Assembly: GCA_000802045.1 (NCBI GenBank)
Contig: JUEF01000030.1
Span: 11,767 to 75,766 of the forward strand
DNA from: Peptococcaceae bacterium BICA1-8
GTDB taxonomy: Bacteria > Bacillota > Peptococcia > Peptococcales > BICA1-8
Length of the DNA: 64,000 bases
Direction of reading: 5' to 3'
Under the pieces are notes generated by a model that ran no database searches, was not told where the DNA came from, and saw only the letters and a program-made list of their open reading frames with translations. How positions within the stretch are numbered: the first letter of the stretch is position 1; each line of letters begins with the position of its first letter. Positions 9,045-45,025 of the stretch are shown one piece after another. The translations under genes were made by a program, and so were the position numbers.

Positions 9045-9890
9045 GCCTCATCTTTCCGAGTCATGGTAGACGCATCGGTTACCCGACGCACCGGGCTCCT
9101 CGAGAATACTCCCTTCCGTAATCGGCTATCATTAATAGCCTCTTGGTATTTTTCGCAGTGAGGTTGGCACCATTTATCCAGCCCTGCATGTCCGGTAGGT
9201 GTTTCCTTTGCAAATTGCGTATTCCCGTTAATCCCTTCCCCATGTAGCCGGCTCTCTCGACCTCATAGTAATATGGATTAATCCGACTTCCTATAGGTCT
9301 TCGGTCAGCCTCTTTGTCGATTGCACATTCCTACCAATAATATTTATATAACTGGAACCTATAGGATCTCCCAAGTTCCGGATACTTCTCTCCATACATG
9401 CCACGTTCTAGGACCCCGACAGACCCTCCAAAATCTCACCAATAGCGATTTTTTTGTATTACTTCCGTGACATTAAACACGTCGTCATCTGCATTTTCCT
9501 CTGTTTCCAGAGTCCACGGTTAACGGGGCTCAATTGTGCTTCAGGGATTACGGTCTCCCTTATGGCCTATATGGTTCTCTAGGTAAAGAATCTAAGCGAT
9601 TCACACAAAAACTAAAAAAAGGTTTTTGGTTCTCTGCTTATGTGTACATTCACCTAGCAGTTACCAGTTTCGGCGCAACACTCGATATGGGTGGCTGGTT
9701 AGGCCTTGCCCAACAGGGACTTTCACCCTGCAAGAAGTACCAAACTTCGCTTGGCGTACTAACGTTCCCGGCATTCCCGACGCTCACCAACCTTAACGCC
9801 TTACCCAATAGGGTGAGTGTGGTCCGGCATGCTACTTGATTAAACTATACCGGACCCGTAAGTGGGAATGGACGTGTTAGCCGGGGTAGC
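9045..9890 (-). ncRNA. GC-rich ORF-free structured segment, family unassigned (degenerate group-II-intron-like or other large ncRNA, or decayed DNA)
   Basis: About 0.85 kb with no credible ORF in six frames and many local hairpins. On the minus strand, GAGCCCGGU-GCGUCGG-GUAA-CCGAUGC (9058-9098) resembles a domain-5-like GNRA hairpin with an AGC base. GGGUGAAAGUCCC lies near 9717-9729. Confidence 0.3.
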
Positions 9891-17034: not shown

Positions 17035-17075
17035 GTCACCAGTCACTAGTGACTAGTCACTAGTCACTAGTCACT
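17035..17075. repeat. ACTAGT-containing heptamer tandem array (CACTAGT/GACTAGT)
   Basis: gtcaccagtcactagtgactagtcactagtcactagtcact, preceded by accatagaccatagactatt (17011-17030). Confidence 0.85.
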
Positions 17076-26455: not shown

Positions 26456-26817
26456 ATTGCGTCTGATAGTTGCTATTTGGTTAATTTGTTGCGTCTGACA
26501 TTACTTCTTCGTTAAATTGTTGCGTCTGATTTACTTTGGGGCCATTCTCTTGCTTCTGACAAGTATTGTCATTGCGAAGGCGTTAACCTGTGGCAATCTC
26601 TGGGTCGGAGATCGCCACGCTACGCTCGCGATGACAGGATCACTAATGCGAACTAGGAAAGGAGATATACCTGCAAAAGCGCAGGAATATCCCCTTTATT
26701 GTGCGGTTAATTTGGGGGCAAAACTTTGCGTCTGACTAATACTGATTGGTTATTTGTTACGTCTAATCGGTTATCTAATTGGTCTAATAGTACTTCTAAG
26801 TGAGCATTTGCGTCTAA
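26456..26817. repeat. phased array of TTGCGTCTGA-type motifs (31-32-bp period)
   Basis: Copies start at 26456, 26488, 26519 and 26550, then 26725, 26756 and 26806. GTCATTGCGA...TCGCGATGAC inverted segment at 26568-26634. Confidence 0.7.
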
Positions 26818-36256: not shown

Positions 36257-36829
36257 TCACCTCCCTTTATTAAAAATTGGTAGTAAAGTTAGTGACTGAT
36301 ATAAAATGCCTAACATTGCACTAATATTTATCAGCAAATTGTCATTTAAAATTGTAAATATTAAAATAAAAATAATAAACAGAACAGAGGAAAGTCTCAG
36401 CTTATTCCGTAAGGTTTGGGAATGAATAGGTTTGGCTTCGGAGTCAACGGGTGCAAATAAAAATACAATAATCAAACATAGCAAAATGAAAATCATATTA
36501 ATCCAGTTAGTAGATCCAACCTGCAATAAATAATTAGCTAGGACTCCAATTAAACTGTAGATAATTGCACCCAAACCTAGGCATTTTAAGGGTGTATCAA
36601 AGTGAGCGCCTCCGGAAACTCTACGTAAAACACCGCCTGATATAGCTGCTATGGCTGCAGGCAAAAGAGCGTTAAAGACAAAACCTAATAATAAAATAGC
36701 CAGAAAACCAACTACACCAAGCAAGAACATCTCAATGGCATAAGAAACAATTTCATTTTTTTCTTCATCATAGTTTAAATCCTTAGTAATAAAACCCGCT
36801 AAGGATTTACTAAAATTAGAAAGCATCAC
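36257..36829 (-). CDS. agrB: AgrB family AIP-processing membrane peptidase
   Basis: 190 aa, 4-6 TM, conserved RR.SGG.H segment (LRRVSGGAHF). Confidence 0.85.
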   Translation of the reverse strand: MMLSNFSKSLAGFITKDLNYDEEKNEIVSYAIEMFLLGVVGFLAILLLGFVFNALLPAAIAAISGGVLRRVSGGAHFDTPLKCLGLGAIIYSLIGVLANYLLQVGSTNWINMIFILLCLIIVFLFAPVDSEAKPIHSQTLRNKLRLSSVLFIIFILIFTILNDNLLINISAMLGILYQSLTLLPIFNKGR

Positions 36830-37283
36830 TAGACTCCTTTATATCTAATCTCTTTTTTTTAATAAATAAGGCTACAAAAAAGATAATTAATACATGGGGT
36901 AAAGTAATTAAAATTCTTATAAAATCATTAGTTAATAATTCCTCACGAGAAATCGCAAATAGATTCATAATGGTAGGAACTATTAAGGACTCTGAAACAA
37001 TTAAAACTAAAAAACTCAATAAGCTAGATAAAATTGCACTACTTAAATCTACTTTTTTAATGAAACTTAGATAAGCAAATAAAAGACCAATTAATACTAC
37101 GGTATGCACGCCAAAAGTAATAGGTAGTAACCTAACCATAAAGGCAGTTATTGCTAGAATAATTCCTACAAAAATTACCTCTCGCCATTTAAAAGGTTGT
37201 CTTGCAATTGAAAGAGCTAAAATAACAACCGCAATTTGTTCAGGAATTCCTTGTAATAATACTACAGAAAAAGAAATATTCAT
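36816..37283 (-). CDS. 5-TM membrane protein of unknown function, overlapping agrB by 14 nt
   Basis: 155 aa, RBS GGAGGA, no soluble domain. Confidence 0.5.
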   Translation of the reverse strand: MNISFSVVLLQGIPEQIAVVILALSIARQPFKWREVIFVGIILAITAFMVRLLPITFGVHTVVLIGLLFAYLSFIKKVDLSSAILSSLLSFLVLIVSESLIVPTIMNLFAISREELLTNDFIRILITLPHVLIIFFVALFIKKKRLDIKESSDAF

Positions 37284-37556: not shown

Positions 37557-38396
37557 TTAATATTCAGGTGGTAGATCCTTCAACTGCTCCATGGTGAAAA
37601 CAGGACCATCAAGACAAACATAACATGAACCAATGTTACAACGGCCACATTTACCAATACCGCATTTCATCCGCATTTCTAAGGTAGTAATAATATCTTG
37701 ATCACTAAAGTTCATTTTTTGCAGACTTGGCAGTGTGAATTTAATCATAATAGGAGGTCCGCACAAAACAGTGACCTGAGGCTTAGGAGCCAGTTCTTCT
37801 ACATAGGCGGGGACAAAACCTACATGACCGTCCCACCCTTCTTCTGCTCGGTCAATAGTAACAAAGACATCCATATTTGGGACCTTAGTCCAGTTTTCAA
37901 ATAAATCTTCCTGAAAACAGAGGTCTGACTTAGACCTAGCACCATAAACTACGGTCAGCTTACCAAAGTCATCTCTATTTTTAATACAGTGCATAATCAG
38001 ACTGCGGACAGGGGCCAAACCGATACCCCCACCAATAATGAGCAGATCTTTACCCTTACAGTAATCAATAGGGAAACCATTGCCGTAAGGCCCCCGAATC
38101 CCAACTTCCTGCCCTACTTCTATTTCATGCAAGGCTTTTGTCAGCTGACCTACTTCTTTAAGAGCCATTTCAATATGGTTTTCCCCTTTGTTGGTAATGG
38201 AAAACATACCCTCACCAACTAGAGGTAGAGACAGCATTCCTAATTGACCAGGCATGGGGTCAAAGGGCTTTTGATCATCCATAGTGCTTATATGAAAGGT
38301 TCTAACATCCGGAGTTTCCTGGACAATTTTTGTTACCTTGGCCTTTATGGGAACTAATGGGTTGATTTTTTTTACATCCTCTACAGTTATCGCCAC
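37557..38396 (-). CDS. flxA: FAD/NAD(P)-binding plus 2Fe-2S oxidoreductase, FlxA/AsrB/HydG-like
   Basis: 279 aa. GGGIGLAP NAD-binding motif and C-terminal CGIGKCGRCNIG 2Fe-2S motif. Confidence 0.75.
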   Translation of the reverse strand: MAITVEDVKKINPLVPIKAKVTKIVQETPDVRTFHISTMDDQKPFDPMPGQLGMLSLPLVGEGMFSITNKGENHIEMALKEVGQLTKALHEIEVGQEVGIRGPYGNGFPIDYCKGKDLLIIGGGIGLAPVRSLIMHCIKNRDDFGKLTVVYGARSKSDLCFQEDLFENWTKVPNMDVFVTIDRAEEGWDGHVGFVPAYVEELAPKPQVTVLCGPPIMIKFTLPSLQKMNFSDQDIITTLEMRMKCGIGKCGRCNIGSCYVCLDGPVFTMEQLKDLPPEY

Positions 38397-38448
38397 CTTA
38401 TTCCCTCCTTCACTTAAGATTAGTTACTCTACCTAGGATGTACTTCAT

Positions 38449-38823
38449 GTCATTCTGAGCGTAGCGAAGAATCTTAATCCATAAGATTCTCTGATAAATC
38501 CTTCCACCCTGGGTTTGCGTTTTCTATCAAATCATTTTTTTTAGACCTAATCCAGCCTTTAATCTGTTTCTCTCTGGAAATTGCACTTCTTACATCTGTC
38601 GTACTTTCAAAATAAACTAATTTATCAACATTATATTTCTTTGTAAACCCTTTAACCATCTTGTTTTTATGTTCATATAAGCGACGTTCGAGATCATTAG
38701 TAACACCTGTATATAGAACATTGTTTGACCAGTTTGTCAGTATATAAACATAATACATAAAGTTCACCTACTGATAAGATTCTTCACTTCGTTCCCGTCA
38801 TTCTGAGCGTAGCGAAGAATCTT
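38449..38823 (-). mobile_element. GIY-YIG mini-cassette bounded by perfect 27-bp direct repeats
   Basis: GTCATTCTGAGCGTAGCGAAGAATCTT at 38449-38475 and 38797-38823. It encloses only the GIY-YIG ORF. Confidence 0.65.
38474..38758 (-). CDS. GIY-YIG nuclease superfamily protein (UPF0213/YhbQ-like)
   Basis: MYYVYILTNWSNNVLYTGVTNDLERRLYEHK... carries the GIY-YIG core motifs. RBS AGGTGA 5 nt upstream of this ATG. Confidence 0.85.
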   Translation of the reverse strand: MYYVYILTNWSNNVLYTGVTNDLERRLYEHKNKMVKGFTKKYNVDKLVYFESTTDVRSAISREKQIKGWIRSKKNDLIENANPGWKDLSENLMD

Positions 38824-38919
38824 GCCTAGTAAGAAGACTAAGATCCTTCGGTCGTACCTCCCTCAGGATGACACAGCAACAATCTGTAGCTTTCAAAGCT
38901 ATGACAAATACAATTTTAG

Positions 38920-39909
38920 TTACGCTTCTTGTAGCTTCTTTATAACATTCGTTATATCAAGATTTACTGGACACTTCACTACACAGCGGCCACAGCCGGT
39001 ACAGAGGAGCATATTGTACCTTTCCGGGAAGTAGCGCAGCTTGTGTAAGAAACGGTTTCTGACCCGTTCCTTTTTACCGGGTCTGGGCTGATGACCACCA
39101 GCCATAACAGTGTATTCATCAACCATACAGCAGTCCCAGCAGCGGATTTTGGTACCATCTTCTCCTCTGACCTCACTTGCGATATCAAAGCAGTGACAGG
39201 TCGGACAGACATAGGCACAAGTGCTGCAGTTTAAGCATTTCCGGGAAATATCATCCCAAATAGGGTGGTCAAACATATCCTTTAATTTTTCCGGCAAGCC
39301 TTCTACATCAGCGGTAAGATTAAACTCTCCTATAGAAGGAATAGCTGCATCTTCCTCTGCAAACATACCCGAAACCTTACTTAATACCTCTTGTCCTCTT
39401 TCAGTGATTCCTTCAAAGCCCAATTTTTCCCCTAAATCATAGGCTTGAATATCTGCGCCCTGACCTTTTTGGGGGTCGATACCCATTGAAGTACAGAAAC
39501 AGGACTCCATAGGTTTTACACAGCTTAAAGCAATCAAAATACTTTTATCCCGCTTGTCTTGATAAAAGGGATCAACAAAGCCTTTGGTTAGAAAAACCTG
39601 ATCTAAGCAGTCAATACTTTTCATATCACAGGAACGGACACCAAAAATAACCTGCAATTTTTCGTCCTGAGGTATTTCTTCAATTTCCAAAGATTGATCC
39701 TTGGATTTGAATTTATACATTTCCTCAGTCTGAGGAAAGAAAATATCCTTGGGAGGCATAGTCACATTTTCCTCTAGAGCCAATTCCAAATTCTCACGGT
39801 AGGCAGCAAATCTAGAAACCCCTTCTAATTTTGCCGGGACTAATACTTTATATTCTTTTGCAAGTTGTTCCAACAACTCAGGCAGCTTTGCTTTAAGAAT
39901 AGTCTTCAT
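38920..39909 (-). CDS. flxB: 4Fe-4S protein, FlxB/AsrA-like
   Basis: 329 aa. CLNCSTCAYVCPTCHC and CTGCGRCVVKCP cluster motifs. N-terminus like anaerobic sulfite reductase subunit A. Confidence 0.7.
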   Translation of the reverse strand: MKTILKAKLPELLEQLAKEYKVLVPAKLEGVSRFAAYRENLELALEENVTMPPKDIFFPQTEEMYKFKSKDQSLEIEEIPQDEKLQVIFGVRSCDMKSIDCLDQVFLTKGFVDPFYQDKRDKSILIALSCVKPMESCFCTSMGIDPQKGQGADIQAYDLGEKLGFEGITERGQEVLSKVSGMFAEEDAAIPSIGEFNLTADVEGLPEKLKDMFDHPIWDDISRKCLNCSTCAYVCPTCHCFDIASEVRGEDGTKIRCWDCCMVDEYTVMAGGHQPRPGKKERVRNRFLHKLRYFPERYNMLLCTGCGRCVVKCPVNLDITNVIKKLQEA

Positions 39910-44980: not shown

Positions 44981-45025
44981 CACTAGTGACTAGTCACTAG
45001 TCACTAGTCACTAGTCACTAGTAAC
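44981..45025. repeat. ACTAGT-containing heptamer array (longest copy)
   Basis: cactagtgactagtcactagtcactagtcactagtcactagtaac. Confidence 0.9.

Follow-up and report, generated by a model that had tools for sequence, protein, structure and literature searches.

A probable ssn gene and its cognate hairpin repeats between the flxB-like and flxA-like genes of Peptococcaceae bacterium BICA1-8

Introduction

We analysed a window of 64,000 nucleotides (nt) from the metagenome-assembled genome (MAG) of Peptococcaceae bacterium BICA1-8, in which the spacer between the flxB-like and flxA-like genes of an flx-hdr operon holds a small open reading frame (ORF) for a GIY-YIG nuclease together with a perfectly repeated 27-mer (all coordinates are window positions unless another locus is named). 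The ORF is most probably (probability about 0.85) an ssn gene of the Ssn family of site-specific endonucleases for single-stranded DNA (ssDNA), the 27-bp repeats being its cognate SRM hairpins. The locus is a new instance of a system already known, not an element of a new kind; it is explained by a discovery of 2025 and opens no new category. A first-pass annotation of the same DNA had presented it as a self-contained module, bounded by 27-bp direct repeats, that had invaded an energy-metabolism operon.

The Ssn family was founded on SsnA of Neisseria meningitidis, a 94-amino-acid (aa) single-domain GIY-YIG protein that binds the hairpin repeat NTS (CGTCATTCCCGCGMAVGCGGGAATCYRG) as ssDNA only, and not its reverse strand, double-stranded DNA (dsDNA) or RNA, and that cleaves a few nt upstream of the repeat (Chenal et al. 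2025, Nat Commun, PMC11893778). The GTC before the palindrome governs cleavage while the C after the palindrome governs binding, and the SsnA mutants Y6A, Y17A and E64A are inactive (PMC11893778). Among the thousands of Ssn homologues described there, at least one SRM lies nearby in 71%, and SRMs lie on both sides in 42%; the authors likened NTS-ssnA-NTS to an insertion sequence, and the analogy with RAYT/REPIN is already theirs (PMC11893778).

Results

Family assignment of the spacer ORF

38474-38758, minus strand: probable ssn gene, coding for a 94-aa single-domain GIY-YIG nuclease of the Ssn family (ORF list, Pfam, SsnA alignment)

The ORF runs from an ATG at 38758, with a ribosome-binding site AGGTGA at 38764-38769, to a TAA stop codon (38474-38476) that falls within the first copy of the repeat, called unit A below. 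Its protein matches Pfam GIY-YIG (PF01541) over residues 4-77 (E=3.5e-18), and no second domain was found by Pfam in the 94 aa. In a tblastn search of 7.3 Gb the protein matched a Neisseria gonorrhoeae chromosome at E=5e-19, and the comparison with SsnA was made with this N. gonorrhoeae orthologue in place of the N. meningitidis protein. The orthologue is a 94-aa ORF that has the Y6, Y17 and E64 of SsnA, and around it lie eight NTS copies, all of them recovered by the published SRM pattern. Pairwise alignment gave 48% identity over 85 of the 94 aa with 0 gaps (E=5e-29), placing Y5, Y16 and E63 of the window protein on the catalytic positions Y6, Y17 and E64 of the orthologue, and the protein falls inside the limits drawn for the family by its discoverers (E<1e-10 and at least 75% query cover against Neisseria SsnA). 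The Neisseria records concerned, NZ_CP119142.1 and NZ_CP119140.1 (L377), of 2.17 Mb each, are filed as plasmids in PLSDB but are evidently chromosomes; they carry ssnA and NTS.

Two other identities of the protein were weighed. A free-standing GIY-YIG homing endonuclease of the I-TevI/Seg type would cut the empty double-stranded flxB-flxA junction and enter it through repair of the break. The window gene shares with I-TevI and Seg of phage T4 the GIY-YIG fold, its position as a small gene between host genes and a presence/absence polymorphism between relatives (see below), and it shows weak similarity to a group I intron endonuclease model and to I-TevI. However, I-TevI and Seg carry DNA-binding domains and cut dsDNA at a specific allele, whereas the window protein, with only 94 aa, has no DNA-binding extension; it scores 22 bits on TIGR01453 against a cut-off of 56, its best solved relative is a minimal UPF0213 domain while I-TevI is matched only at E=0.4, and it is 48% identical to SsnA, which is inactive on dsDNA (PMC11893778). 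Moreover, unlike homing endonucleases, its relatives have ssDNA hairpins as substrates, and their genes are scattered over many unrelated junctions, in every case together with the hairpins; we regard a homing endonuclease as very improbable. The other identity, a vertically inherited housekeeping repair protein of the UPF0213/YhbQ type with repeats that are unrelated to it, would agree with the closest solved structure, UPF0213 BH0048, which is a minimal GIY-YIG domain (E=0.0015), and with purifying selection on the gene. By contrast, SsnA is a far closer match to the protein (E=5e-29) than UPF0213 structures are, 79 orthologous junctions are without the gene, and the same family occurs in unrelated contexts with the same hairpins, leaving this identity hardly credible.

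Hairpin units at the locus

38449-38475, plus strand, inverted relative to the gene: SRM unit A, right-end hairpin of the ssn unit and first copy of the 27-mer (stem covariation, flank consensus)
38776-38794, minus strand: SRM unit L', left-end hairpin of the ssn unit in truncated form, GAACGAAGTGAAGAATCTT (compared with the intact left arms of L003 and L013)
38797-38823, plus strand: SRM unit B, second copy of the 27-mer and right half of an ORF-less pair with unit C (repeat search, inverted-repeat search)
38839-38872, minus strand: SRM unit C, GTCATCCTGAGGGAGGTACGACCGAAGGATCTTAG, left half of the ORF-less pair C/B (motif scan)
38468-38490, no strand assigned: 9-bp hairpin AGAATCTTA / TAAGATTCT, which overlaps with the unit A tail and the final codons of ssn (inverted-repeat search)
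26568-26635, no strand assigned: intergenic ORF-less inverted pair with stems ATTGC/GCAAT and ATCGC/GCGAT (fold -19.7 kcal/mol, z -4.5)

The 27-mer GTCATTCTGAGCGTAGCGAAGAATCTT is present in two exact plus-strand copies, at 38449-38475 and 38797-38823. Both had been pointed out in the first-pass annotation, and a search of the window and of shuffled sequences confirmed them: no third match appeared in the window when up to three mismatches were allowed, and 100 shuffles gave 0 matches. The repeat is in fact longer, extending over 32 nt of which 30 are identical (38444-38475 vs 38792-38823). Unit A reads T, GTC, ATTCT, GA, GC, GTA, GC, GA, AGAAT, C, TT; the tag is TGTC in units A and C and CGTC in unit B, and L' is without its first 8 nt, the GTC tag and the 5' stem half being gone. 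Read along the minus strand, the flxB stop is followed by unit C (38872-38839), 15 nt, inverted B (38823-38797), GG, L' (38794-38776), the ribosome-binding site and ssn, inverted A (38475-38449) and 52 nt containing the ribosome-binding site of flxA.

Hairpins had been proposed at both repeats and both exist, one formed by 38776-38794 with 38805-38823 and the other by 38468-38476 with 38482-38490. Unit B has two possible partners, pairing with L' at -10.9 kcal/mol (z -3.9) and with C at -12.4 kcal/mol (z -2.6). Other parts of the earlier description hold in part. The GIY-YIG gene does lie between the two 27-mers but is not the sole content of that interval, since L', a 5'-truncated fourth unit on the minus strand, is also there; the sequence at 38842-38871, regarded as a remnant, is a related copy but a complete third unit on the minus strand (38839-38872); and the supposed remnant at 26568-26634 is a related element that consists of an ORF-less inverted pair of a related unit.

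The canonical unit, as seen in L003 and L013, has in gene orientation GTCATTCTGAACGAAGTGAAGAATCTT, then ~20 nt that include a ribosome-binding site, then the ORF and TAAGATTCTTCGCTNCGCTCAGAATGAC; many more homologous loci show this arrangement. Because homologous genes are edged in this way by inverted copies of a motif of about 27 bp, and because B is part of the adjacent pair C/B, the direct repeats do not delimit a module, and the proposal that they form its ends is given up. What looks like a direct repeat combines B and A, each of them the inverted-orientation member of one of two adjacent units; they are not the two ends of one element.

Structure and consensus of the hairpin motif

The motif can be written GTC ATTCT GA GC GNA GC GA AGAAT C and is preceded by T, thereby comprising a T-GTC tag, a 5-bp stem, tandem G·A, a GNA loop and then C-T. 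In DNA, both sheared G·A pairs and GNA loops that C-G closes have unusual stability. Covariation was scored in an IMG/VR scan with GTCANNNNGAGCGNAGCGANNNNT, a pattern that imposes no pairing, and all four N-pairs were Watson-Crick at 61 of 90 new non-redundant sites, for which the chance expectation is 1/256. At least 11 stem variants occur among the IMG/VR sites, and the inner pair covaries too (GC..GC vs AC..GT).

Strict units were defined as GTCA-N4-GA-N3..40-GA-revcomp(N4)-T, for which the background is about 0.1 per 64 kb. Their inner segment (522 units) is mostly GCGNAGC, with longer hairpins of up to 40 nt also occurring. Of 288 units taken from unbiased sets, 97-99% have a C directly 3' of the stem and 86-92% a T directly 5' of GTC; the conserved GTC tag and 3' C are the published determinants of SsnA for cleavage and for binding, respectively. 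Paired units are significantly stable (z -2.6 to -4.5). These hairpins, with a covarying 5-bp stem and tandem G·A, are a distinct class that is missed by the published SRM pattern, HGTCWYN(0-2)YYVSBRHN(0-5)WNVSBRGN(0-2)RNCYNB. A loose unit, GTC plus any perfect 5-bp stem, was rejected with 57 occurrences in the window vs 52.7 in shuffles, and the association figure of 82/86 obtained with it was dropped. A literature search by the repeat sequence string returned coincidental primers only, and what general searches on GIY-YIG and repeats brought up concerned mostly fungal mitochondria.

Association of hairpins with ssn homologues and in phage-like contigs

Strict units were found within 500 bp of 61 of 86 homologue ORFs and on both sides of 36 of them, while shuffled flanks gave about 0; the canonical layout, with a sense unit upstream and an inverted unit downstream, was seen at 30 of the 86. 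Related units flank most homologues, and the objection named in the first-pass annotation, absence of the 27-mer from all other GIY-YIG loci, does not hold. Protein identity was 0.647 among loci with the same stem type and 0.601 otherwise, a difference that 0 of 2000 permutations reached. This fits co-variation of enzyme and hairpin, with shared ancestry as a confounder. The gene is co-oriented with its upstream neighbour at 31 of 34 loci (crude ORF calls), and it sits between operon partners elsewhere too, for example in sbcD-ssn-sbcC.

The hairpins could alternatively act in the transcript, as processing or stability stems (like the intervening sequences excised by RNase III) that uncouple flxB and flxA, with the nuclease gene as a passenger. 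In favour of such a role, the ORF is enclosed by two stretches that are complementary over a long range, 38457-38476 and 38775-38794, both the B/L' and the C/B stem have significant stability, and the cluster, having no terminator, is probably co-transcribed. However, orphan units in viral contigs show no orientation bias with respect to transcription (37 sense vs 34 antisense relative to genes), the conserved asymmetric tag and tail match determinants of DNA recognition, and SsnA does not bind RNA (PMC11893778). Action in the transcript is therefore quite unlikely as the function of the repeats, an RNA side-effect on flxA expression being possible. The orphan units also lie more often in convergent gaps (24) than in divergent ones (5), and their placement fits a DNA-level element tolerated in intergenic regions, not an RNA signal.

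The same 25-mer hairpin was observed in more than 100 phage-like IMG/VR contigs (loci L023-L213) of high and low GC content and with unrelated flanks, and an ssn homologue was present in 1 of the 105 stretches of the first IMG/VR scan (L112). Head-to-tail hairpin copies with a 30-nt period occupy 6763-6847 of L101, and nine copies are spread over 3717-9747 of L075. In six related phage contigs (L036, L059, L063, L069, L122 and L127) the hairpin stands at one shared intergenic site, immediately before the ribosome-binding site of a conserved gene, although the flanks have diverged considerably.

Insertion into the flxB-flxA junction

38920-39909, minus strand: flxB-like gene, 4Fe-4S dicluster protein, intact (Pfam Fer4_22, E=5e-31)
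37557-38396, minus strand: flxA-like gene, FAD/NAD-binding Fe-S protein, intact (Pfam NAD_binding_1, DHODB_Fe-S_bind, FAD_binding_6)
38397-38919, minus strand: flxB-flxA spacer of 523 nt, housing ssn and all units of the locus (ORF list)

The gene had been described as lying in the orientation of an operon that was invaded without damage to a flanking gene, and this is what we find: ssn, the flxB-like gene and the flxA-like gene are all on the minus strand, and both neighbours are intact. The flxA ribosome-binding site GGAGGG is kept just upstream of the GTG start at 38396, and flxC-like and flxD/MvhD-like genes lie upstream on the same strand.

A FlxA scan with one genome per species gave 80 loci, 79 of them with a readable flxB-flxA junction. 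The spacers in these species are mostly -22 to +26 nt in length, so most of the 79 have overlapping genes or genes at most 26 nt apart, bearing out the assumption that flxB and flxA are normally adjacent. A GIY-YIG gene was found in 0 of the 79 junctions, which means that the gene is not universally conserved at this place, and no real units were present in 624 kb of orthologous flx loci. The lack of the gene from these junctions, combined with their tight spacing, indicates that the cluster was inserted at this site.

Relatives with FlxA identity above 80% have flxB-flxA spacers of 4-288 nt. In L273 (BRH_c20a) the spacer is an unrelated 272-nt sequence with no cluster, and consequently the insertion boundaries, and any target duplication, are not readable; L215 retains a remnant of unit C, GTCATCCTAAGGGAGGTAC, at the same place. 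As a side observation, the spacer is hypervariable in the clade (L273 3728-4001, L218 3712-4001, L215 3751-4001), with several GATGCATC-like repeats in L273, tandem CAGTMACCAGT-like repeats in L218 and debris starting with GTCAT in L215. Tandem heptamers (GTCACTA)n occur at 17042-17064 and 44993-45022 of the window, and similar ACTAGTCACCAGT stands just upstream of flxA in L273, L215 and L218.

Divergence of the repeats in a second lineage

The closest Ssn homologue (P0002, with 87-89% identity according to the comparison used) occupies the same junction in the metagenome contig L375, whose spacer is collinear with that of the window and 91% identical; the insertion has thus been inherited by two lineages or more. 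Unit B of L375 is of the ATCCT/AGGAT type, like its partner C, and differs from A by one indel and by two substitutions that compensate each other within the hairpin; its distance from L', which is truncated as in the window, is greater by 43 nt. The 9-bp hairpin at 38468-38490 is lineage-specific and missing from L375. Given that B differs from A in L375, the 27/27 identity in the window is a lineage-specific change, and neither a mark of insertion nor a target duplication. The perfect repeats, which had been read as the signature of the element, are thus peculiar to the BICA1-8 lineage. To judge from the two sequences, B and L' would have been overwritten by A-type sequence, most simply through gene conversion.

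The ratio dN/dS between the window and L375 is 0.26 for ssn, 0.02 for flxA and 0.09 for flxB, and ssn is a maintained gene under purifying selection, not a decaying one. The first ~75 nt of ssn are identical in the two (window 38680-38758 vs L375 1340-1418), while the remainder of the gene and the flanks are ~10% different; the identical 5' end may reflect a local conversion tract or constraint. Nucleotide identities of the flanking genes are as follows.

Window vs L273: flxB 92.6%, flxA 93.6%
Window vs L375: flxB 90.1%, flxA 92.4%
L375 vs L273: flxB 89.7%, flxA 92.0%

An active, self-contained mobile cassette that was inserted recently, with the 27-bp direct repeats as its ends or as a target duplication, would account for the exact 27-mers flanking the ORF and for the lack of the cluster in 79 other species as well as in L273, a close relative, and the likeness of NTS-ssnA-NTS to an insertion sequence has been noted (PMC11893778). 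However, the homologues are bounded by inverted and not direct units, copy B is part of the neighbouring pair C/B, and the copies in L375 differ by the two substitutions and one indel, so that they do not represent a duplication made at insertion. The left-end unit is tagless in both lineages, and the insertion is older than their ~9-10% DNA divergence. With ssn under purifying selection as well, the earlier suggestion of a recent insertion no longer holds, and we consider an active cassette of this kind unlikely. Exact-protein look-ups with Ssn and FlxA for filled and empty alleles returned the same locus only.

Discussion

The identification of the ORF as ssn and of the repeats as its cognate hairpins has to be weighed against several observations that count against it. 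The published SRM pattern has 0 matches in the window and matches within 500 bp of 0 of the 86 close homologues; it misses these units because the tandem G·A violates an S position, and what supports assignment of the motif is consequently its architecture together with the conserved bases of tag and tail, and not the published consensus. A single unit is no more stable than shuffled sequences under nearest-neighbour DNA parameters (-1.9 kcal/mol, z about 0), and its fold is therefore founded on covariation only. On the historical side, the gene conversion was deduced from a comparison of two lineages only, and L273, which is without the cluster, is slightly nearer to the window than L375 is. 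Since L273 is not an outgroup, loss, replacement or recombination must be invoked, and the direction of the change is not settled.

By analogy with Neisseria SsnA, the Ssn protein would bind units A, B or C, including the 3' C, once they become single-stranded, as might happen during replication or in incoming transforming or conjugative DNA. The predicted nick, ~3 nt 5' of the tag, would lie near 38444/38445 and 38792/38793 on the plus strand and near 38876/38877 on the minus strand. L', being without a tag, should escape cutting, and the ssn unit is for that reason probably fixed in place and no longer excisable. Candidate cellular roles are restriction of SRM-bearing ssDNA and the spreading of repeats. 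No terminator-like site was found on the minus (coding) strand of the flxB-flxA spacer, which together with the co-orientation at 31/34 loci and the operon-internal examples makes it likely that ssn is transcribed by read-through from the flx-hdr operon. Rfam, at gathering and permissive thresholds, returned nothing relevant at the ssn locus. A weak sigma-70-like promoter match (9/12) faces flxA at 38426-38453 on the minus strand, formed by ATGACA in the outer end of unit A and TAGAGT 16 nt downstream.

The locus resembles Ssn/NTS in coding for a 94-aa GIY-YIG protein that is 48% identical and shares the catalytic residues, and the resemblance extends to oriented hairpins flanking the gene with GTC before the stem and C after it, to ORF-less repeat pairs nearby and to a repeat-gene-repeat layout like that of an insertion sequence. 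By contrast, NTS has an 8-bp perfect stem with a 4-nt loop, whereas in the units described here a stem of 5 bp is combined with tandem G·A and an inner hairpin that varies, and the tag is mostly TGTC instead of CGTC, with the published pattern failing to match. Unlike Neisseria ssnA, the gene belongs to a Gram-positive Peptococcaceae MAG and lies inside an operon. This adds a Gram-positive example of ssn, lodged between flx-hdr subunit genes that normally abut or overlap. Since the published pattern misses this hairpin class (0/86), the published figures for association of genes and SRM are probably undercounts.

The repetitive extragenic palindromes (REPs) with a CGTC tag, which include dRS3 of Neisseria and RPE-4/6 of Rickettsia, were described without a dedicated transposase, and Bacillota are not listed among their hosts (Di Nocera et al. 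2013, PMC3733652). The present units share with them the CGTC/TGTC tag, a stem that starts with A-T, ~9 stem positions, frequent inverted dimers and a mostly intergenic location. They differ in having two G·A positions and a 3-nt loop or a longer inner hairpin where CGTC-tagged REPs have an 8-9 bp stem and a 4-5 nt loop, and in a CTT tail in place of CCA; a dedicated enzyme is now known, namely Ssn. With RAYT/REPIN and IS200/IS605 the locus has in common an enzyme gene between inverted tagged hairpins that also occur as solo units and inverted doublets, and, if SsnA is a guide, recognition of a single-stranded hairpin with a cut beside it. The enzyme, however, is of the GIY-YIG and not the HUH/Y1 type and is not known to carry out strand transfer, the tag is GTC and not GTAG, and mobility is putative; membership in RAYT/REPIN was accordingly rejected, and the likeness is one of layout only. 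An integron gene cassette was also rejected, as the units start with GTCAT and no GTTRRRY core was seen on inspection (an integrase was not searched for).

More tentatively, and with considerable doubt, Ssn-SRM units could be true ssDNA transposons driven by a GIY-YIG enzyme, with the ORF-less pairs at 38797-38872 and 26568-26635 as non-autonomous derivatives and the GA-bracketed class as a widely travelling lineage that also seeds phage genomes (the 25-mer is present in >100 IMG/VR contigs with almost no ssn). The insertion itself, the presence/absence polymorphism, the inverted-repeat ends and the concerted evolution speak in its favour; against it, no clean pair of filled and empty sites was found in the loci compared, and the left end is defective here. 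If true, Ssn would rank as the first GIY-YIG transposase of prokaryotes and would supply the mobilising enzyme that CGTC-tagged REPs have long lacked. The orphan hairpins of phage contigs bear on whether Ssn is an ssDNA restriction system or a spreader of repeats. For the locus at hand, hairpin copies appear to homogenise each other, and "perfect" repeats need no recent transposition.

Other features of the window

Six decamers of the TTGCGTCTGA type, spaced ~30 nt apart, lie at 26457-26817 on both sides of the ORF-less pair at 26568-26635; the decamer type has 13 matches in the window vs 1.9 expected. Immediately downstream of flxA, the minus strand carries at 36257-37283 a gene for an AgrB-family membrane protein and a second membrane protein gene. 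The AgrB call rests on Pfam AgrB in the annotation of L001, and the pair represents agr-like peptide signalling beside the energy operon. Another mobile element is found at 9404-9723 on the minus strand, where Rfam RF02005 matches group II intron domains D1-D4 (83 bits, E=1e-21).

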